From an uncultured Acidimicrobiales bacterium (GTDB taxonomy: Bacteria; Actinomycetota; Acidimicrobiia; Acidimicrobiales; SZUA-35), in the NCBI GenBank assembly GCA_937922045.1, contig CAKZXA010000019.1:2315-66314 (forward strand): a DNA stretch of 64,000 bases, read 5' to 3'. The notes beneath the pieces were generated by a model, which was not told where the DNA came from, did not search any database, and saw only the letters and a program-made list of their open reading frames with translations. Each line of letters begins with the position of its first letter. Within the stretch, counting starts at the first letter, position 1. The position numbers and the translations under genes are program-made. Below, in pieces: positions 32,800 through 42,378 of the stretch.

Positions 32800-35568
32800 A
32801 TGATGGCTGAGTCCGCTTATCCGTCCCAATGGGAAACCCACGTTGTCCTTAGCGACGGTTCACCGGCCGAGCTACGTCCGATCAGGCCTGGCGACCGGGA
32901 GCGGCTCGTCGACTTTCATCGCCGCCAGTCGGCCGAGAGTATCTATTTTCGGTTCTTTCGCCATCGCCCTGAGCTGAGCGACAAGGAACTCGACTACTTC
33001 ACCCAGGTTGACTACGTCGGCCGGATGGCCTTTGTGGCTCTGGTCGGCGACCGGCTGGTAGGGGTTGGCCGCTATGAGCGCCTCGGTGATTCAAACGTCG
33101 CTGAGGTCGCGTTTTTCATCGACGATGATCATCATGGTCTAGGCATTGCCACGATCATGCTCGAATATCTGGCGGCGGCTGCGCGATCGGTTGGCCTCGA
33201 GGGTTTCACCGCGAGCGTTCTGCCTGAAAACTATTCGATGCTCGCTGTCTTCAGACGAGCAGGGTTTGATGTTTCGACCCGTTTCGATGAGGGCGTGATC
33301 GAGGTTGAGCTGGGGATCGAGATCACACCGGAAGCATCCTCTGCAATCGTCGAGCGTCGCCGACGGGCTAGGGTCCGCTCGGTTCATCCGGTTCTGGCCC
33401 CTCGCTCGGTGATGCTCATCGGGGCTAGTCGACACGCCGGTGAGGTCGGCTATGAGCTGGCGAGGAACCTGATCGGCGCTGAGGACGCCGGGAGAGGTTT
33501 CGCCGGATCGGTCGCCCTCGTAAACCAGGCTGCTCGAATCGAAGATGGCGCCATGATCGACGTCCTCTTCGGGCAGCCACTGATCCCGTCGATCGAGGAG
33601 GCGGCCACCGTTTTGGCTGCGGCTCAGGCTGAGCAACAAGCGGCCCATGTCGACTCTGGTGAAGAACCCGCCGATCATCGTGGGATCGACCTGGCCATCG
33701 TGGCTGTACCAGCCCGTGAGACGCCGGGTGTTATCGATCGGTGCGCTGCTGTCGGCGTCCGCTCCCTGTTCGTCGTTTCCTCTGGCTTTTCGGAGGGCGG
33801 GGCGGAAGGCCAGCTCTGGGAAGATGCGTTGACAGAAAAGGCGCTGAGCCATGGGATGCGTCTTGTTGGTCCAAATGCTTTCGGGCTCGCCAACACCGAC
33901 CCTGAAGTGCGCTTGAACGCTCTGTTCCTGCCGATTCGGCCTCGCCCAGGGCCGATCGCTGTTGCATCGGATTCGGGCCCGTTGGGTGCAGCCCTGTTGA
34001 ACCAGCTCTCCAACCAGCTTGCCGACGAGCACGTCGGTGTCTCCGATTACGTGGGTATCGGAAACCAGGCCGACATCGACGTGCCTGACCTGCTCGACTA
34101 CTGGGCGAGGGCCGACCGAACGCGGGCGGTCGTGCTCTACCTCGAAGACCTCGGTGAGCGGGCTGAACTGATCGAAGCTGTCGGTTCGATAACGCCCCAC
34201 AAGCCTGTTGTCATGATCGCCCCTGGCGACGCCATCCTGGCCCAAGCCCTCCACCAGCGAGGAGCACTACTGGTCGAGGATGTAGGCCAGCTCGCCGACC
34301 AAGCCATGCTTGCGGTCCTGCAGCCGATACCGAAGGGCCGCCGGGTCGCCATTGTTTCCAACACAGCATCGGTGGCTCGATTGACGGCCGCTGCTTGCAG
34401 CCGCAACGGCCTAGAGATTGTGAAACCGCAAAGCACCAGCGACGGGTCCGATGCCGACTCGTTCCTGGTGGGCAACCTCGACACGGTCTCGTTGGAGCCT
34501 CACTCGGAGATCGACGTGTATGAGCGCACGATCGTGGCCGCAGCCGTATCGGACGAGGTCGATTCGCTGATTCTGGCGCTAGCTCCCACCGCCCTTCTTC
34601 CGCCCGAGAAGCTACGCCGATTGCTCGACCGGATTAACCGGGCAATCGACAAGCCGATCGTCGCTGTGGCCCTTGTGGGACGTGAACTGGTCTCTAGCGA
34701 TCGCCTGCCCACCTTCACCTTTCCAGAGAAGGCGGCCCAGGCGTTGGGCCGTTGGGCCCGCCATGGAAGTTGGCAGACCGCCCACCTGGCCTCGGCTGAG
34801 GTCGAGTCGTCCGAGCCGGCTAGCTCGGGTGAGGCTTCGGCGCCGAGCGACCGGGTTGCCTTCCAGCTGGAAGCATCGCTGGGCGATGCCGACGGGGTGA
34901 CCCTAGGGCTCGCTGATCCAACCATGCCGGCCTGGCTTGATCTGCTGGCGTTGCCGGTCGCCGACTTTGAGGTAGGAACCTCGCTGGCCTCCACCGAGCG
35001 GGCGGCCACCTCGGTGGGCTATCCGGTTGTCTTGAAGGCTGGTCATCTCACGAAGCGGGCACCAGGGGAGTCGGGTGGAGCTGCACTCGATCTCTACGGC
35101 CCGGTGCCGCTACGGGGCGCCTATGAGCGGATGACCGATCTCTACGGACCAGCCATGGATCGTGCGGTCGTGCAAAAGCTGGTGGTCGCCGATCACGTCA
35201 TTCGAATCGACCTGGTTCAACAGGCCGACGTTGGCGCCTTCGTCTCGGTCGGCTTTGGAGGATGGTGGCTCCGCTCTAGTCAGGCGGTCGCACAACACCT
35301 TGTTTCGCTTCCAGGTGCCTTAGGGCAGAGTGACGCGGAAGCTATGGCGGCCGAGATCGTCGACGCAGTGGCAGGTCAGCCATCGATGATCGGTCCGATC
35401 GCAGAGCTCATTGGGCTGGTCGGAGCGGCCCCTGACGTTGCGCCAGAGGTGTCGTTTCTGTCGCTGAACCCGATCTTCGTCACGGCTGAAAAGGCCACGG
35501 TCATCGATGTCTACCTGCGATTGCGGCGACTCGAGCATCATCCTTTGTCGGAGGTTAGACACCTCTGA
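32800..35568 (+). CDS. bifunctional GNAT acetyltransferase / NDP-forming acyl-CoA synthetase-like protein (Pat-type protein lysine acetyltransferase)
   Basis: N-terminal GNAT core (VAEVAFFIDDDHHGLGIATIML) is followed by CoA-binding, succinyl-CoA-ligase-like and ATP-grasp-like regions. Length is 922 aa. Confidence 0.75.
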   Translation: MMAESAYPSQWETHVVLSDGSPAELRPIRPGDRERLVDFHRRQSAESIYFRFFRHRPELSDKELDYFTQVDYVGRMAFVALVGDRLVGVGRYERLGDSNVAEVAFFIDDDHHGLGIATIMLEYLAAAARSVGLEGFTASVLPENYSMLAVFRRAGFDVSTRFDEGVIEVELGIEITPEASSAIVERRRRARVRSVHPVLAPRSVMLIGASRHAGEVGYELARNLIGAEDAGRGFAGSVALVNQAARIEDGAMIDVLFGQPLIPSIEEAATVLAAAQAEQQAAHVDSGEEPADHRGIDLAIVAVPARETPGVIDRCAAVGVRSLFVVSSGFSEGGAEGQLWEDALTEKALSHGMRLVGPNAFGLANTDPEVRLNALFLPIRPRPGPIAVASDSGPLGAALLNQLSNQLADEHVGVSDYVGIGNQADIDVPDLLDYWARADRTRAVVLYLEDLGERAELIEAVGSITPHKPVVMIAPGDAILAQALHQRGALLVEDVGQLADQAMLAVLQPIPKGRRVAIVSNTASVARLTAAACSRNGLEIVKPQSTSDGSDADSFLVGNLDTVSLEPHSEIDVYERTIVAAAVSDEVDSLILALAPTALLPPEKLRRLLDRINRAIDKPIVAVALVGRELVSSDRLPTFTFPEKAAQALGRWARHGSWQTAHLASAEVESSEPASSGEASAPSDRVAFQLEASLGDADGVTLGLADPTMPAWLDLLALPVADFEVGTSLASTERAATSVGYPVVLKAGHLTKRAPGESGGAALDLYGPVPLRGAYERMTDLYGPAMDRAVVQKLVVADHVIRIDLVQQADVGAFVSVGFGGWWLRSSQAVAQHLVSLPGALGQSDAEAMAAEIVDAVAGQPSMIGPIAELIGLVGAAPDVAPEVSFLSLNPIFVTAEKATVIDVYLRLRRLEHHPLSEVRHL

Positions 35569-35632: not shown

Positions 35633-36901
35633 CTAGCGGTTGCCCAAGGGAACGTAGGCTCGCTCGCTCGGTCCGGTGTAGACCTGGCGTGGACGTGAGA
35701 TACGGGCTCCCTGTTCGATGGCTTCGTTCCAATGCGAGAGCCAGCCTGGCATACGGCCAATAGCGAACAGCACCGTGAACATGTCCATCGGGAACTTCAT
35801 TGCCTCGTAGATGAGGCCCGTGTAGAAATCGACGTTCGGATACAGGTTCCGACTCTTGAAGTAGTCGTCCTCAAGGGCGATCTCCTCCAACTTGAGCGCA
35901 ATGTCGAGCAGGGGGTTGGTTCCCGTGACCTTGAAGACCTCATCGGCGTGGTTCTTGACGATCCGGGCTCGTGGATCGTAGGCCTTGTAGACCCGGTGGC
36001 CGAAGCCCCACAACAGTTCGTCGCCGTTCTTGACCGAGTCGATGAACGCTGGAATGTTCTCGTAGCTGCCAATTTCTCGCAGCATGTGGATCACGGCCTC
36101 GTTCGCTCCGCCGTGGCGTGGCCCATACAGTCCTGCGGTGGCGGCCGAGGCGGCGCTGAACGGATCGGCATGAGCTGAACCAACAACCCGCATCGCCGTC
36201 GTCGAACAGTTCTGCTCGTGATCGGCGTGGAGGATCAAGAGTACATCGAGGGCCTTGGACAGAACCGGATCGGGTTCATAGGCCGGTTCGGCAACCCGCC
36301 ACATCATCGACAGGAAGTTCTCGGCGTAGTTCAGGTTGTTGTCGGGGTAGACGAAGGGCATGCCGATGCTGGCCCGGTAGGCCATGGCAGCGAGGGTTGG
36401 AGCCTTCGAAATCAGACGGTTGATCTGAATGAAGCGGTTTTCTCGATCCTCGATGTCCTTGGCCTCGGGGTAGAAGGTGGACAACCCGGCTATAGCCGAG
36501 ACCAGCATGCCCATCGGATGGGCGTCGTAATGAAAACCCTCGTAGAACCGCTTGCGCATGTTCTCGTGGATGAAGGTGTGGTGGGTTACGTCGTAGACCC
36601 ACTGGTCGTACTGCTCCGTCGAGGGCAGCTCGCCGTTGAGAAGGAGGTAGGCCACCTCAAGAAAGGTTGATTGCTCGGCCAGCTGCTCGATTGGGTAGCC
36701 GCGGTAGCGCAGGAAGCCTTCCGCTCCGTCTAGCTCGGTGATAGCGCTTTCGGTGGAAGCGGTGACGGTGAACCCCGGATCGAGGAACCAGACGCCCGGC
36801 ATGTTCTTCTTCCACATGCTCGAATCGACGCCACCGTTGACGATGGGGACCTCGAAGGAGTTCCCGGTTCTGTTATCGGTGATCGTTACGGAGTCTGACA
36901 C
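35633..36901 (-). CDS. gltA: citrate synthase
   Basis: LRYRGYPIEQLAE, HADHEQNCSTT and GFGHRVYK motifs. The GTG start is preceded by AGAGAGG. Confidence 0.9.
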   Translation of the reverse strand: MSDSVTITDNRTGNSFEVPIVNGGVDSSMWKKNMPGVWFLDPGFTVTASTESAITELDGAEGFLRYRGYPIEQLAEQSTFLEVAYLLLNGELPSTEQYDQWVYDVTHHTFIHENMRKRFYEGFHYDAHPMGMLVSAIAGLSTFYPEAKDIEDRENRFIQINRLISKAPTLAAMAYRASIGMPFVYPDNNLNYAENFLSMMWRVAEPAYEPDPVLSKALDVLLILHADHEQNCSTTAMRVVGSAHADPFSAASAATAGLYGPRHGGANEAVIHMLREIGSYENIPAFIDSVKNGDELLWGFGHRVYKAYDPRARIVKNHADEVFKVTGTNPLLDIALKLEEIALEDDYFKSRNLYPNVDFYTGLIYEAMKFPMDMFTVLFAIGRMPGWLSHWNEAIEQGARISRPRQVYTGPSERAYVPLGNR

Positions 36902-37206
36902 AGTGAGCCTCTCTTATGGATGTTCGCGGATCCGCTCTAAACAACACGCCATTGTGTCTGGAGCGGTCATCACTTCTATCGAAACGAAACACCGGGTGGT
37001 CTGAACCCCATTGTTCACGGCGGCCACGCGGCATATGTTGGTGTTTCGCCAGCTTTTGCTGGCGCCTGACGGTCGATGCGAACCAGGTGGTTCGGCTACC
37101 GACTGGTTATCAACTGCTCAAGGCTGAATCTAGCGCGATCAGCCGTGCTCGTCATCATCGCACTTTACATTTCGTTCGACGCCCGGCTTACGGCATGCTG
37201 GATGAT

Positions 37207-38547
37207 CTACAGCGGACTGTTGTCGTGACGCCGAGGCCGAAGTCGTTCTCGCTTGGTTATGAGCATCGTTAGGGCAGAACAGACGGTCGATCTTGTCTCC
37301 GCTGGGGTGATGATGGCATTGATCGACTGACGCTCAGCGGCTGGGTAAGGGGTAAGGTGTGTGGCTTCGTAGTCGGCCTGGAGCCGCTCTCGCTCTTCGG
37401 GTGTTTCGGTTCGGTGGAGAATCTCAACCGCTCCCTTGGCGCCCATGACGGCCACCTCGGCGCTGGGCCATGCCAGCATCAGGTCGTTGCCCATGTTTTT
37501 CGAGTCCATCACGATGTAGGCGCCGCCGTACGACTTGCGCAGGATCAAACCGATGCGAGGCACGGTTGCCCGGGCGTAGGCGAAGGCCATCTGGGCGCCG
37601 TGGCGAATCATTCCCCGCCACTCCAGGTCTTTGCCGGGGAGAAAGCCCGAGGTGTCGACCAGGGTTAGCAGCGGGATGTTGAAGGCATCGCAGAAGCCCA
37701 CGAATCGCCCGCCCTTTTGGGCTGCTGGGATATCGATGCTTCCGGCCAGGGCCTGGGTTTGGTTGGCGACGATCCCGGTCGGGATGCCACCAAACGAGCA
37801 GAAGCCGGTGACGAGGTTGGGAGCCCAGCCGGCTCGCAGCTCAAAGAACTCGCCGTCGTCGCAGAGAGCGACGACGACATCTCGAACGTCGTAGGAGCCC
37901 TGCGCTCCGCTCGGAAGGAGTTCCCCTGCCTCGCTGCTGTCCCTAGCAACCGGGTCGTTGGTCGGAACCTCGGGTGGCAGACTTTCGACACTGTCGGGAA
38001 GATACGCCAGAAGCTCGCCGATGACGTCGAGGGCGTCGTCCACATCCTCGGCCACGAGGGAGGCCAGCCCAGTCGATCGGAGGTGGGAGCCGAGCCCACC
38101 GAGTTCATCGGCAGTAACCGGCACCCCGGTGTAAGCCTCGACACTTGTCGGGCCCGTCACGAAGGTGTAGGCCCCTTCGGTGAACACCACGACATCGACG
38201 AGGCCCAGCAGTAGGGCGGGTCCGGATACGACGGGGCCTGACACGATGGCTAAGGTCGGGATGACACCGCTGGCCATCGAAAGCTCTCGGGCCGCTGATC
38301 CCCAGGCGCCTGAGGCGCCGATACCGTCTTCGGCCGCAACGCCGACGGTCTCGATGCAGAGTACGAGCGGAATGCGTTGCTGTGCCGCTGAGCGTACGGC
38401 AGCAGCCAGAGTGGTCCCGTCAGCTGCACGGAGCGACGGTGGGCCGTCGGGGGACTCGATCCGAGCGAACAAGACACGTCGGCCGTCCAGAAAAACGGTG
38501 CGCGTGCTGACAACCGGAGCTGAGTGACTGCGTAGGTTAACGCTCAT
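37207..38547 (-). CDS. acyl-CoA carboxylase carboxyltransferase (beta) subunit-like protein
   Basis: Carboxyl-transferase motifs are present (GVIPTLAIVSGP, FCDAFNIPLLTLVDTSGFLPG, SYGGAYIVM). Start placed at ATG 38547, giving about 446 aa. Confidence 0.8.
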   Translation of the reverse strand: MSVNLRSHSAPVVSTRTVFLDGRRVLFARIESPDGPPSLRAADGTTLAAAVRSAAQQRIPLVLCIETVGVAAEDGIGASGAWGSAARELSMASGVIPTLAIVSGPVVSGPALLLGLVDVVVFTEGAYTFVTGPTSVEAYTGVPVTADELGGLGSHLRSTGLASLVAEDVDDALDVIGELLAYLPDSVESLPPEVPTNDPVARDSSEAGELLPSGAQGSYDVRDVVVALCDDGEFFELRAGWAPNLVTGFCSFGGIPTGIVANQTQALAGSIDIPAAQKGGRFVGFCDAFNIPLLTLVDTSGFLPGKDLEWRGMIRHGAQMAFAYARATVPRIGLILRKSYGGAYIVMDSKNMGNDLMLAWPSAEVAVMGAKGAVEILHRTETPEERERLQADYEATHLTPYPAAERQSINAIITPAETRSTVCSALTMLITKRERLRPRRHDNSPL

Positions 38548-38656
38548 TCTCAACCTCTGTTGTCGTGGATTTCGACCCTGACGACACAGCGCCAGCAAGC
38601 GGCCAGGGCGAAACGAAAAGGACGGGTATCGATCGAGCTGATGGTACCAACCGCAT

Positions 38657-39574
38657 CTACGATCCGAGCAGGTGGATTCCAGGCATCTCCGAAGCCTGGG
38701 TTTCGATCACGCTCTTGAGCGTCGACACGGTGGCCTGAGCAGCGACGGTTGGAATGCCGCGTCGACGCGCCGCCAGTCCAACGGTTCGCCGGGAGAGGCC
38801 ATCGATCTGGATTCGGGTCCAGTCGCCGCCGATCCAGCCGGGCGCGGCGGTCGCCGGGACGATCGCAATGCCGTAGCCCTGGAAGGCAAGAGAGGCGAGA
38901 AGTCGGAGCCCGTCGATCTCGACGTGGGCCTTTGGTCGAAGCCCACGCTGACGGAAGGCCTCGTCGATCTCTTGGCGAAACGGTGTGCCGGGAGCAGCGA
39001 GCATGAGTTCGTACTTGGCCAGTTCGGACAGATCGACCGGCCCTTCGATTTGGGCTAGCGGGTGATTATCTGGGCCGACCACGATGTGGTCCTCATCGAA
39101 CAGGGCTGTGGTGCGAATCTCAGGATCGTCGACCGGTAGGCCAACAATCCCAACGTCGAGTTCGCCATCGAGGAGGCGAAGCTCGATCGACCTAGTCGTG
39201 CCGTCGGCGACGACGAGTTTGATCTCGGGCGCCTCAGCAGCGAGAGCCTCGACGAGTAGGGGAGTGAGCCATCGTGCCGTCGTGCCGATGATGCCGATCC
39301 GCACCGTGCCCCGAGGTGAACCCCTCAGAGAGGAAACATCGGCCTGAAGTGAGGCCAGTTCGGTTTGGATGCGTCGCACCCGCGTGAGCACGGCCTCGCC
39401 TTCTTCGGTGGCACGGCCCGTCGAGCGATCGATGAGGGTGGTGTCTAGTTCTCGTTCGAGGCGCGCCACGTGAGTCGAGATATTCGACTGTACGGTGTGG
39501 GTTGCGCGGGCTGCAGCCGTGAACCCGCCGTGCTCAACGACGGCGAGGAAGGCTTGGAGTTGTCGGAGATCCAT
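38657..39574 (-). CDS. LysR family transcriptional regulator
   Basis: MDLRQLQAFLAVVEHGGFTAAARATHTVQSNISTHVARLE is a typical LTTR HTH. The start is 39574 or 39592. Confidence 0.85.
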   Translation of the reverse strand: MDLRQLQAFLAVVEHGGFTAAARATHTVQSNISTHVARLERELDTTLIDRSTGRATEEGEAVLTRVRRIQTELASLQADVSSLRGSPRGTVRIGIIGTTARWLTPLLVEALAAEAPEIKLVVADGTTRSIELRLLDGELDVGIVGLPVDDPEIRTTALFDEDHIVVGPDNHPLAQIEGPVDLSELAKYELMLAAPGTPFRQEIDEAFRQRGLRPKAHVEIDGLRLLASLAFQGYGIAIVPATAAPGWIGGDWTRIQIDGLSRRTVGLAARRRGIPTVAAQATVSTLKSVIETQASEMPGIHLLGS

Positions 39575-39620
39575 CACCAATGATGATGGCATGAATCTGT
39601 CCCGGATGCATCTCTTAGAC

Positions 39621-39635
39621 GAATAGAAACTATCT
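39621..39635. promoter_or_regulatory. imperfect 15-bp dyad GAATAG-AAA-CTATCT (core ATAGAAACTAT); candidate LysR-type binding site
   Basis: Read directly. It sits between the lysR start and the candidate sRNA promoter, about 50-60 nt upstream of the predicted sRNA start. Confidence 0.3.
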
Positions 39636-39682
39636 TTCCAAACCGATCGCAGATGGCCGGTTGTGATGCTATTATGAACACA

Positions 39683-39801
39683 GTCGAAACAGTCTGGTTC
39701 CCCCTCCAGCATTAGTTTCGAAAGTCTCGGGCCTCACCCCCCTCTGGCCCGGACTACTTACATCAGAAACCGGTCGCTAAGGCGGCCGGTTTCTTCTTTT
39801 T
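39683..39801 (+). ncRNA. candidate 6C-like small RNA (two hairpins with C-rich loops plus intrinsic terminator)
   Basis: - Extended -10 TGCTATTAT at 39667-39675.
- Hairpin 1 at 39684-39721: outer stem TCGAAAC/GTTTCGA, inner stem CTGG/CCAG, loop TTCCCCCT.
- Hairpin 2 at 39727-39752: stem CGGGCC/GGCCCG, loop TCACCCCCCTCT.
- Terminator at 39767-39801: 11-bp stem, UAAG loop, then CTTCTTTTT.
- The exact 5' end is not determined. Confidence 0.55.
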
Positions 39802-39901
39802 GTCGGTGCGCACTGCAAGACTGCAGCAGACAGGAGGACGATGGCGGCTGGCCGATCCGGTGGCAGCCGCCGACCATTGTTACCCGATGCGAATGGTGAG
39901 C

Positions 39902-39929
39902 GATCCGCACGGTTTCAGCCGTGCGGATC
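39902..39929 (-). terminator. perfect 11-bp stem hairpin downstream of the aconitase stop (no U-tract)
   Basis: GATCCGCACGG-TTTCAG-CCGTGCGGATC lies 53-80 nt downstream of the acn stop on the minus strand. Confidence 0.5.
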
Positions 39930-39981
39930 TTGACCGCCTACGGGCGATGATGAACCGCCATTCGCTGCGACGTCGAAACGA

Positions 39982-42279
39982 CTAGCGGCCAGCCTCGACC
40001 TGGCGACGGATGACGGCGAGCGCCGATCCGGCCTTAAACCATTCGATCTGGTCGTCGCTCATCGTGTGATTGCCTTCGAACGTCCAGGTCTCACCAGCCG
40101 GGTTGGTCACCGTAACGGTCACCGTGCTGCCCGGTGTGAGCTGGGCCAGGCCTTGAGTGCCGAGACGATCATCCTCGCCAATGCGGTCGTAGGCGGTCGG
40201 ATCGGCGAACGTCAACGGCAGAACACCCTGCTTCTTCAGGTTGGTCTCGTGAATACGGGCGAACGAGCGGGCCAGGATAAGCACACCGCCCCGGAAGCGT
40301 GGTTCCATCGCCGCGTGCTCTCGAGAGGAGCCTTCACCCATGTTTTCGTCACCGATGGCAACCCAGGCCTGGCCAGCCTCGTGGTATGCCTTGGCGATGT
40401 CGGGGAAACTCATCATTTCGCCGTTGAGCTGGTTGCGGCCCTGGCCGACGATGCCGTCGTTGAAGGCGCTGACCGCTCCCATGTAGAGGTTGCCCGAAAT
40501 GTTCTCTAGATGGCCTCGATACTTGAGCCAGGGGCCGGCCATCGAGATGTGGTCGGTCGTGAACTTGCCTTGGGCCTTGACGAGCACCGGAAGATCGGCA
40601 AAGTCGTTGCCGTCCCAGGCATCGAACGGCTGGAGCAGTTGAAGCCGGTCCGACGTCGGCGAGATTTTCACCTCGATACTTGAACCGTCGGCTGGAGGCG
40701 GAAGGAAGCCGTCTTCGCCTTCGTCGAATCCTCGCGGCGGCAGTTCGATGCCGACGGGAACATCGAGACGAACCTCGGTTCCATCCGGAGCGGTCAGCGA
40801 ATCGGTAAGCGGGTCGAAGTCGACCCGGCCAGCGAGGGCTAGTCCCATCACGGTCTCCGGCGACGTGACGAAGGCGAGGGTGGCGGGATCGCCATCGTTG
40901 CGCTTCGGAAAGTTGCGGTTGTAGGAGGTGACGATCACGTTGGGCTCGCCAGCGGTGTGACCCGTCTCTTCGCTTCGGTCCCATTGGCCGATGCAAGGTC
41001 CACAAGCATTGGCGAGAACGACGCCACCGATGGCTTCCAAATCGGCCAGTAGGCCGTCGCGTTCGATGGTGGCTCGAACCTGTTCGGAACCCGGGGTGAT
41101 CATGAGCTTGGTTTTGGCCTTGAGCCCGGCAGCCGAGGCCTGGCGGGCGATCGAGGCCGCCCGGGTGATGTCCTCGTAGGAGGAGTTGGTGCACGAGCCG
41201 ATGAGGGCGGCCGAGATCTCTAGCGGCCAGCCGTTGGCCTCTGCTTCGGCTCCCAATGCCGATACTTCGCGAGCGAGGTCTGGGGTGTGGGGTCCGTTGA
41301 TATGAGGACGAAGGGTTGAGAGGTCGATCTCGATGACCTGGTCGTAGTAGTCGCCTGGGTTGGCCAGCACTTCGTCGTCGGCCCGAAGGTGATGAGCGAC
41401 GGCGTCGGCCGCGTCGGCGGTGGCCTCACGGCCCGTCGACTTCAGGTAGCGAGCCATGGCATCGTCGTAGCCGAAGATCGACGTTGTGGCGCCGATCTCG
41501 GCCCCCATGTTGCAGATGGTGGACTTGCCGGTGCAGCTGAGGCTGTTCGCACCTGAACCGAAGTATTCGACGATGGCGCCCGTGCCACCCTTCACGGTGA
41601 GAATCTCAGCCACCTTCAAGATGACGTCCTTCGGAGCGGCCCAGCCCGAGAGCTCGCCGGTGAGGTGAATGCCGATCAGCTTGGGCCAGCGCACGTTCCA
41701 GGGGAAGCCGGTCATGACGTCGACGGCGTCGGCGCCACCGACGCCGATGGCAACGATGCCGAGGCCGCCAGCGTTGGGGGTGTGACTGTCGGTGCCGATC
41801 ATCATGCCGCCCGGGAAGGCGTAGTTTTCGAGCACAACCTGGTGGATGATGCCGCTTCCTGGCTTCCAGAAGCCGCCGCCGTACTTGGCGCTGACCGATT
41901 CAAGGAAATCGTAGACCTCGGCGTTGCCGTCCACGGCGGCCATGAGATCGAGCTTGCCCTCGACGCGAGCCTGAATCAGATGGTCGCAGTGGGTGGTGGT
42001 CGGCACTGCAACCTCGCTCAGGCCCGCAGTTTGAAACTGGAGCCAGGCCATTTGAGCCGTTGCGTCCTGCATCGCTACCCGATCGGGGCGGAAGTCGACG
42101 TAGCTGACGCCACGTTCGGTCTCGGCGTCGGCCTGGTCGAGGTGGTTGGCCAAGATCTTTTCGGCCAAGGTCAGGGCGCGGCCTTGTTTCGTTCGGAAGG
42201 CGCCGACGCGCTCATCAAGGGTGGCGTACACCTTGTTGATCAGTTCGATCGGTGTTTCGGGTCCTACGTTTGTGCTCAT
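39982..42279 (-). CDS. acn: aconitate hydratase, mitochondrial-type (about 765 aa)
   Basis: Carries [64 protein letters not shown] and [14 protein letters not shown]. The start is placed at ATG 42279, preceded by GGGAG. The raw ORF's extra 32 aa translate an upstream tandem repeat. Confidence 0.95.
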
Positions 42280-42328
42280 GGCTGCTCCCTTTGACTGCCT
42301 TTTGACTACTGCCTTGACCGGCTGCGCT

Positions 42329-42358
42329 TCGTTGTCACATGGTTCGTTGTCACATGGT
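42329..42358. repeat. perfect 2 x 15-bp tandem repeat (TCGTTGTCACATGGT) in the acn-gntR intergenic region
   Basis: Read directly. Each unit contains GTCACA. Confidence 0.95.
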
Positions 42359-42359
42359 C

Positions 42360-42378
42360 TAGTTGTATGATACAACTA
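42360..42378. promoter_or_regulatory. perfect 19-bp palindrome TAGTTGTAT-G-ATACAACTA; candidate GntR(HutC)-type operator
   Basis: Read directly. It fits the general GntR operator form (N)yGT(N)xAC(N)y and lies between divergent acn and gntR. Confidence 0.5.

Follow-up and report, generated by a model that had tools for sequence, protein, structure and literature searches.

A conserved, structured small RNA gene with C-rich loops beside a LysR-type regulator gene in the Acidimicrobiales, and its relation to 6C RNA

The small RNA gene, its fold and its conservation

The window, which is the whole stretch of 64,000 nucleotides that was analysed, belongs to contig C19 of a metagenome-assembled genome (MAG; 4.9 Mb in 128 contigs) from an uncultured member of the Acidimicrobiales (Actinomycetota). 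A gap of 407 bp separates the genes for a LysR-type regulator (38657-39574) and aconitase (39982-42375), both on the minus strand, and within it positions 39682-39801 of the plus strand hold a real, conserved and structured small RNA (sRNA) gene. An earlier reading of the letters alone (the sequence-only reading) had proposed an unannotated structured sRNA gene at this position, with two C-run loops and a terminator of its own, in an actinobacterium, and this proposal is supported. Searching the whole window with Rfam at gathering thresholds returned only three tRNAs, and no family of Rfam 15 detects this RNA. Its elements are as follows.

39682-39801, plus strand: predicted sRNA transcript of about 120 nt, its start placed about 7 nt past the -10 element and its end at the U-run
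39684-39721, plus strand: hairpin H1, a bulged stem with the apical stem CUGG/CCAG and the loop UUCCCCCU at 39698-39705 (RNAfold)
39723-39755, plus strand: hairpin H2, with the loop UCACCCCCCUCU at 39734-39745 (RNAfold)
39765-39801, plus strand: intrinsic terminator, with a 13-bp stem (eight G-C pairs) at 39765-39794, a UAAG loop and a UCUUUUU tail to 39801

The minimum free energy (MFE) of the 126-nt stretch is -55.6 kcal/mol, compared with -30.4 +/- 3.4 kcal/mol for 200 dinucleotide shuffles (z = -7.33), none of which equalled it. The MFE structure, which makes up 45% of the ensemble, consists of three hairpins that agree closely with those read from the letters. H1 lies where a bulged hairpin had been drawn, with UUCCCCCU as its apical loop; the second hairpin, given before as 39727-39752, has the loop UCACCCCCCUCU and a slightly larger stem in RNAfold; and the strong terminator, described as an 11-bp stem with a UAAG loop at 39767-39801, has 13 pairs at 39765-39794 followed by the U-run, and is also found by a consensus scan. 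Loop 2 holds a run of six Cs at 39737-39742, while loop 1 has a run of five with further Cs in the sequence UCC, which is partly in the stem. Together with its closing bases, the H1 loop includes CCUCC, an anti-Shine-Dalgarno-like core.

Conservation was assessed with the 126-nt sequence and with R1, a covariance model of the window-type RNA built from 13 sequences. The former has BLAST matches in one further genus of the family and, within the genus to which the window belongs, in 22 of 24 genomes; the RNA is also present in dozens of other Acidimicrobiales MAGs. R1 detects all 24 aligned homologues (37-128 bits; 102.6 bits for the window RNA) and finds a single copy of the RNA in the genome. 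A candidate second copy on contig C32 (20.7 bits, E = 0.2) was rejected, being coding-like sequence without the fold. For the covariation analysis, 24 distinct homologues were oriented, trimmed and fitted to R1, a fit that itself favours the structure. Pairing in this alignment reaches 94.8% of cells (82.4% in shuffles), and of the 30 pairs 18 have changed on both sides. On none of five covariation measures did any of 500 shuffles attain the observed value, and sliding the 3' partners by 1-3 columns lowered the pairing to 21-52%. Compensatory changes between related intergenic regions, which the sequence-only reading had named as something to look for, are seen in every helix: H1 has 12 pairs, 94-100% paired and seven of them changed on both sides, all six modelled pairs of H2 are changed on both sides, and five of the 12 pairs in terminator helices 5 and 6 carry compensatory changes. 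The unfitted alignments agree with the model-fitted one: on plain MAFFT alignments RNAalifold gives the same three helices. Whereas the stems vary, the loop-1 core UCCCCCUC is invariant among the 24 homologues and the loop-2 core CCCCC(C)UU is nearly so.

The statement that the gap has no credible open reading frame (ORF) also holds. Its only two, of 61 aa (39800-39985, plus strand) and 50 aa (39758-39910, minus strand), have no Pfam match and neither is kept in related loci, so a small-protein reading was rejected; a DUF1127-like guess for the 61-aa frame was not borne out. About 55 nt past the aconitase stop codon there is a 28-nt near-perfect inverted repeat, GATCCGCACGG-TTTCAG-CCGTGCGGATC (39902-39929), which may be the aconitase terminator, though it lacks a U-run on the minus strand.

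The LysR partner, the gene cluster and the control region

Through the LysR protein alone, 80 loci (L050-L129) were fetched, at 84-43% identity; all of the named ones are MAGs assigned to the Acidimicrobiales, Acidimicrobiia or Actinomycetota. R1 finds the RNA in the LysR-adjacent gap of 50 of these loci, and R2, a second covariance model made from eight distant positional orthologues with two hairpins, adds seven, giving at least 57 of 80. In most of the remaining gaps C-loop hairpins are visible by eye. Among the R1-positive loci the RNA is nearly always on the strand opposite to LysR. In three loci (L080:2311-2429, L084:2356-2472 and L095:355-470) it is flipped and co-directional with LysR, carrying its promoter block along, and evidently this small gene moves as a unit.

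Across the Acidimicrobiales the order of the cluster is aconitase (convergent), HAD-PlsC, the sRNA, LysR, a carboxyltransferase (PF01039) and citrate synthase. The carboxyltransferase gene follows LysR in about 60 of the 80 loci, citrate synthase comes next after it in 52, and aconitase converges on the RNA side in at least 26. The divergent LysR gene and the neighbouring tricarboxylic acid (TCA) cycle genes, singled out by the sequence-only reading as notable, therefore form an arrangement that is conserved across relatives and is no accident. Two further window genes belong to the cluster.

35633-36901: citrate synthase
37207-38598: carboxyltransferase

The carboxyltransferase and citrate synthase genes follow LysR on the same strand (window 35633-42375; L050-L129), and LysR may regulate these as well as the sRNA. 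Adjoining citrate synthase is a 922-aa ORF (32800-35568) with GNAT acetyltransferase, CoA-binding, succinyl-CoA-ligase-like and ATP-grasp domains, which looks like a Pat-type protein lysine acetyltransferase.

The regulator itself does not match an NCBIfam equivalog, the best being CynR, whose cut-off is 277 bits, with 150 bits, and its nearest solved relatives are OxyR and BenM (E ~1e-22). OxyR-like redox sensing was considered and rejected: the protein contains no cysteine and is therefore not an OxyR-type redox switch. It is more likely to respond to a small-molecule ligand.

The region from the LysR start to the RNA was aligned for 22 genomes (alignment A6). It contains the following elements, listed with the LysR gene that they face.

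38657-39574, minus strand: LysR-type regulator of 305 aa (Pfam HTH_1 and LysR_substrate), divergent from the sRNA
39610-39624, no strand assigned: dyad resembling the box of a LysR-type transcriptional regulator (LTTR), ATC-N9-AAT in the window and ATC-N9-GAT (T-N11-A) in 21 relatives
39631-39654, no strand assigned: second conserved block, TATC...CAGAT, overlapping the -35 element; GT(T/A)GACAGATG in relatives, ATCGCAGATG in the window
39667-39675, plus strand: extended -10 element TGCTATTAT, aligned with the invariant TAnnnT of relatives (T136, A137, T141)

The putative LTTR dyad precedes the predicted sRNA start by some 60-70 bp. In A6 both ATC and GAT are invariant, with the right half-site degenerate in the window. 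TATC is also invariant, and GT(T/A)GACAGATG, including (T/A)GACAGAT, spans the -35 element, which in the window is the weak TCGCAG (39647-39652). A consensus promoter scan of the gap gave no sigma-70 -35/-10 pair. The extended -10 that the sequence-only reading had placed at 39667-39675 is present there as TGCTATTAT, and the predicted promoter rests on this element and on the aligned promoters of relatives, which read TTGACA/TAGACA-N17-TAnnnT. The shared region would appear to have the usual layout of an LTTR-dependent promoter, to which LysR presumably binds. On the side of the regulator gene, ATGATGGCAC is conserved in A6 directly upstream of the LysR start codon. The motif ATGATGGCA(C/T) at 39583-39592, conserved 8-18 nt upstream of that start (reverse strand GTGCCATCAT), looks like a LysR -10 element; if it is one, the LysR mRNA would therefore be leaderless or nearly so.

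Relation to 6C and to other C-loop RNAs

Canonical 6C RNA (RF01066; B11/ncRv13660c of M. tuberculosis, cgb_03605 of C. glutamicum, scr3558 of S. coelicolor) comes from the same phylum, Actinomycetota, and is defined by a pair of stem-loops whose loop regions each hold six or more conserved cytosines (PMC5014011). Like 6C, the window RNA is short and stand-alone and has runs of 5-6 Cs in the loops of two hairpins, and by analogy these loops would be expected to pair with G-rich ribosome-binding sites (RBSs) (PMC6486639). In the 6C loci L035 and L041 there are two C-loop hairpins, the second of which is the terminator, and the stem sequence is strongly conserved.

The distant positional orthologues bring the two designs closer together. 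Eight loci in which LysR is about 45-50% identical (L101, L108, L109, L110, L112, L119, L123 and L125) have two hairpins with C6-C8 loops, and in L101, L108, L110, L112, L119 and L125, among others, the second C-loop hairpin is the terminator, which is the 6C layout. Elsewhere among the positional orthologues (L082, L085-L089, L092, L093, L097, L102, L124, L126) the number of C-loops is 2-4, and in several of these the terminator loop is C-rich or has two C-runs. The family is structurally plastic, with two to four C-loops. Model R2 matches sites defined as 6C by Rfam at their exact coordinates in five loci, Streptomyces-like and other, with 31.6-18.6 bits (L042 31.6 bits, E = 1e-6; L041, L043, L045 and L046 E = 2e-4 to 5e-3), and it also matches, at E = 1e-4 to 1e-2, RNAs of the window type from the genus.

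A second link is provided by a neighbouring gene. Most relatives of the window have a HAD-IB/PlsC fusion gene on the same strand as the RNA, placed between it and aconitase. In three canonical-6C genomes the best or co-best match of the HAD domain of this RNA-adjacent gene is the HAD gene beside 6C, and in the reverse direction the 6C-adjacent HAD protein of a Streptomyces-like genome has its best match directly downstream of the RNA in G003, G007 and G018. The HAD-IB genes beside both RNAs fall in TIGR01490, so that the RNA of the window's relatives adjoins the reciprocal best hit of the Rv3661-like gene; the 6C homologue B11 of M. tuberculosis is located between Rv3660c and Rv3661 (PMC3384566). 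No HAD gene stands beside the RNA in the window, and the adjacency of RNA and HAD is seen only in relatives.

RF01066 has a gathering score of 47 bits. It is over this cut-off in 8 of 201 genomes from other families of the phylum and in none of 151 genomes of the class Acidimicrobiia. The sub-threshold hits within the class, L130 and L131, were rejected as other C-loop RNAs or terminators lying away from LysR, HAD, aconitase and citrate synthase genes. L130 (G075:C76:541-700, minus strand) is a different RNA with three C6-loop hairpins that reaches 43 bits, and therefore C-loop sRNAs occur in more than one context within the Acidimicrobiia.

We favour common descent with 6C, with some confidence: the window RNA is most likely a class-specific, remodelled branch of 6C-type sRNAs. 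The principal alternative is that it belongs to an independent sRNA family, specific to the Acidimicrobiia, that converged on C-rich loops and acts in the same way under LysR with no shared ancestry, and this has a substantial chance of being correct. A series of results weighs against common descent. RF01066 gave no match on 39500-40050 even at E<=10, nor on the whole genome at E<=10, where the search was limited in sensitivity (the C. glutamicum control stayed under the cut-off), and it also fails on the two-hairpin relatives, L108 and L119 included. R1 on 15 canonical 6C loci gave at best 10.8 bits (E = 0.31), and R2 gives the window RNA 10.8 bits with E = 0.78, yet this is its top match in the 64 kb. 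In architecture the window RNA has three hairpins and a separate terminator with a UAAG loop that is not C-rich, whereas 6C is about 80 nt long with its second C-hairpin as the terminator, and the canonical hairpin-2 stem GACGACCcCCGC...GGCGGGGGUCGUC is absent. Pairing with LysR inside an aconitase/citrate synthase cluster is undescribed for 6C, and the window-type RNA is co-directional with the HAD gene whereas canonical 6C, in Mycobacterium-like and Streptomyces-like genomes, is divergent from it. The cross-matches between models may reflect shared design and not descent, because C-rich loops are frequent among actinobacterial sRNAs, many of them unrelated (PMC6486639), and because the unrelated L130 reaches its 43 bits on RF01066.

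Convergence, on the other hand, does not easily account for reciprocal-best-hit HAD-IB genes flanking both RNAs, one family among about 4000 genes, a coincidence unlikely to arise by chance. Nor would it lead one to expect that an intermediate model matches both groups at the correct coordinates, and the lack of above-threshold canonical 6C in the 151 genomes of the class fits replacement and not coexistence. The sequence-only reading had called the RNA 6C-like, which the distant orthologues, R2 and the reciprocal HAD matches make a fair description; membership of the 6C family, which it also suggested, is unproven, with RF01066, R1 and the architecture all speaking against it.

Among RNAs of other phyla, the best partial matches in Rfam are to ar14 (RF02344) and ar7 (RF02342), 'cuckoo'-type sRNAs of Alphaproteobacteria with CCUCCUCCC loops, which are matched over the full length at 24.9 and 22.3 bits. 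These likewise consist of two hairpins, with C/U-rich, anti-Shine-Dalgarno-like loops, and a terminator after them. Against cut-offs of 58.8 and 60 bits the scores fall far short, the phylum is different, and the window RNA is single-copy while the ar14 and ar7 families are typically multi-copy, so the resemblance is one of design only. A permissive Rfam search of 39500-40050 returned, besides ar14 and ar7, a DnaX match confined to the terminator, and all three were set aside as sub-threshold look-alikes in design.

Mode of action and significance

The explanation that we consider probable, taken as a whole, is a stand-alone, trans-acting C-loop sRNA of about 120 nt that is paired with LysR, is of 6C type by descent and pairs with G-rich sites. 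It starts from the observed structure, conservation and covariation, single copy and synteny, and adds that the RNA would be transcribed, would be controlled by LysR and would pair with G-rich sites. In this scheme a separate terminator follows two C-rich loops that the RNA would present in single-stranded form, UUCCCCCU(CC) on H1 and CACCCCCCUCU on H2. By analogy with 6C/B11 the loops would base-pair with G-rich, Shine-Dalgarno-like stretches of mRNA, at sites of the GGAGGGGGAA or AGAGGGGGG type, altering translation or stability, probably without a chaperone. The divergent LysR would set the level of the RNA, with activation or repression in response to a small-molecule ligand being probable, and an ancestor with two hairpins, the second C-loop hairpin serving as its terminator, would have gained a separate terminator here. 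Pairing with G-rich sites is the best guess because the C-rich loops of 6C act in this way, binding G-rich RBSs directly and independently of a chaperone, as at the AGGGGGG of panD (PMC6486639).

Divergent pairs of an LTTR and an sRNA are familiar from OxyR-OxyS and GcvA-GcvB of enterobacteria and VtlR/LsrB-AbcR of the Rhizobiales. In those pairs, too, the sRNA is divergent from a LysR-type gene (here the RNA lies in the LysR-adjacent gap of 57 of the 80 loci), with T-N11-A boxes in the shared region, and this combination points to the sRNA being directly controlled by the adjacent regulator. The RNAs themselves show no relationship in sequence or structure, the LysR protein of the window is not OxyR-like, and control here is presumed by comparison. 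RsaE/RoxS of Firmicutes is an sRNA with C-rich motifs that represses TCA-cycle mRNAs. The window RNA shares with it unpaired C-rich motifs predicted to bind a G-rich Shine-Dalgarno sequence and a link to central carbon metabolism, here by gene neighbourhood only; it has no Rfam RsaE match and differs in phylum and fold. A role of the window RNA in the TCA cycle would be a guess from synteny.

Two sets of observations count against the proposed action. Genome-wide, few start codons are accompanied by exact loop complements, and the start regions of acn, gltA, the carboxyltransferase and LysR show no notable complementarity to the RNA. In addition, the window has a degenerate LTTR half-site and -35 element and an extended -10 (TGn) has appeared, because of which the dependence of the sRNA on LysR may be weakened or relaxed in this genome. 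Exact loop complements do occur just upstream of the start codons of a LacI-type regulator (C4, minus strand), an ABC-transporter ATPase (C4, plus strand) and an Amt ammonium transporter (C115), all of them weak leads. A home-made genome-wide target scan was discarded as uninformative, owing to crude ORF calling, the dominance of pairing by stem nucleotides and uncertain start codons.

That target searches established no mRNA target would also be in keeping with a protein-binding or decoy RNA, whose C-loops would tie up an RNA-binding protein, poly(C)-binding or other, or would imitate the 16S anti-Shine-Dalgarno sequence and so sequester something other than mRNA. As in protein-sponge RNAs, the loops carry invariant motifs, of which different relatives have two to four copies. 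Against this, the closest characterised RNA, 6C, acts by direct pairing of its loops with mRNA without a chaperone (PMC6486639), and none of the genes in the conserved cluster encodes a candidate binding protein; we regard a decoy as improbable.

Somewhat less probable again is that the RNA acts in cis, as leader or attenuator of the gene that follows it, HAD-PlsC in relatives. The attraction of this idea is that in most relatives HAD-PlsC follows co-directionally about 40-150 nt past the terminator, and structured hairpins followed by a terminator are the layout of an attenuator. In the window, however, no co-directional gene follows: aconitase is convergent, the 180-nt spacer past the terminator (39802-39981) is unconserved, and no remnant of HAD-PlsC was found in it. 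The genome has one similar gene only, a TetR-linked paralogue of 46% identity that lies on a different contig (C50:26288-27700); between HAD-PlsC orthologues of the genus, identity is about 67%. The window genome has thus lost HAD-PlsC yet kept the RNA fully intact, and HAD-PlsC is also absent, with the RNA kept, in L080, L082, L086 and L097. L080, L084 and L095 carry the RNA gene in inverted orientation, the HAD-PlsC gene of relatives has a TAGCnT -10-like box of its own just 5' of the start codon, and no anti-terminator fold is evident, with 45% of the ensemble in the MFE structure. That the RNA stays intact without a downstream gene, and that it occurs in flipped copies, speaks for a stand-alone, trans-acting RNA and against a cis leader. 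The C50 paralogue is accompanied by a divergent TetR-family gene and has a palindromic, operator-like TTGACAAATGTCA just 5' of its start.

Chance hairpins or a decaying, functionless remnant, to which the degenerate -35 and LTTR half-site and the deletion of the neighbouring HAD-PlsC might point, are hardly credible given that the loops, three helices and terminator are intact (z = -7.33; R1 102.6 bits), that covariation is strong throughout the genus and that an extended -10 is present.

The C-rich-loop sRNAs of the 6C/B11 type are the best-understood riboregulators of high-GC Gram-positive bacteria. To our knowledge they are known only from Actinomycetes, and how they are controlled is unclear; no paper in the literature searched connects the Acidimicrobiia with 6C or with a C-loop sRNA linked to LysR. 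The present locus shows that a related design is conserved across the Acidimicrobiales, represented here only by uncultured MAGs, where the current Rfam model misses it. The gain is incremental, in that a known kind of regulator is extended and re-framed and no new mechanism is added. The alignment can serve for an Rfam-type family, which would end the lack of annotation of these genes, and the fixed partner regulator and fixed metabolic neighbourhood give a testable handle on signal, regulator and regulon. A bolder possibility, which we hold to be rather unlikely as it stands, is that LysR and the sRNA form a metabolite-sensing module at the entry of the TCA cycle: LysR would sense a central-carbon metabolite, the sRNA would retune many mRNAs with G-rich RBSs, and the locus would preserve the ancestral state of 6C, with a HAD-IB neighbour shared across the phylum. 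If this were true, 6C, whose physiological trigger is still unclear, would gain a candidate dedicated transcription factor and a metabolic context.

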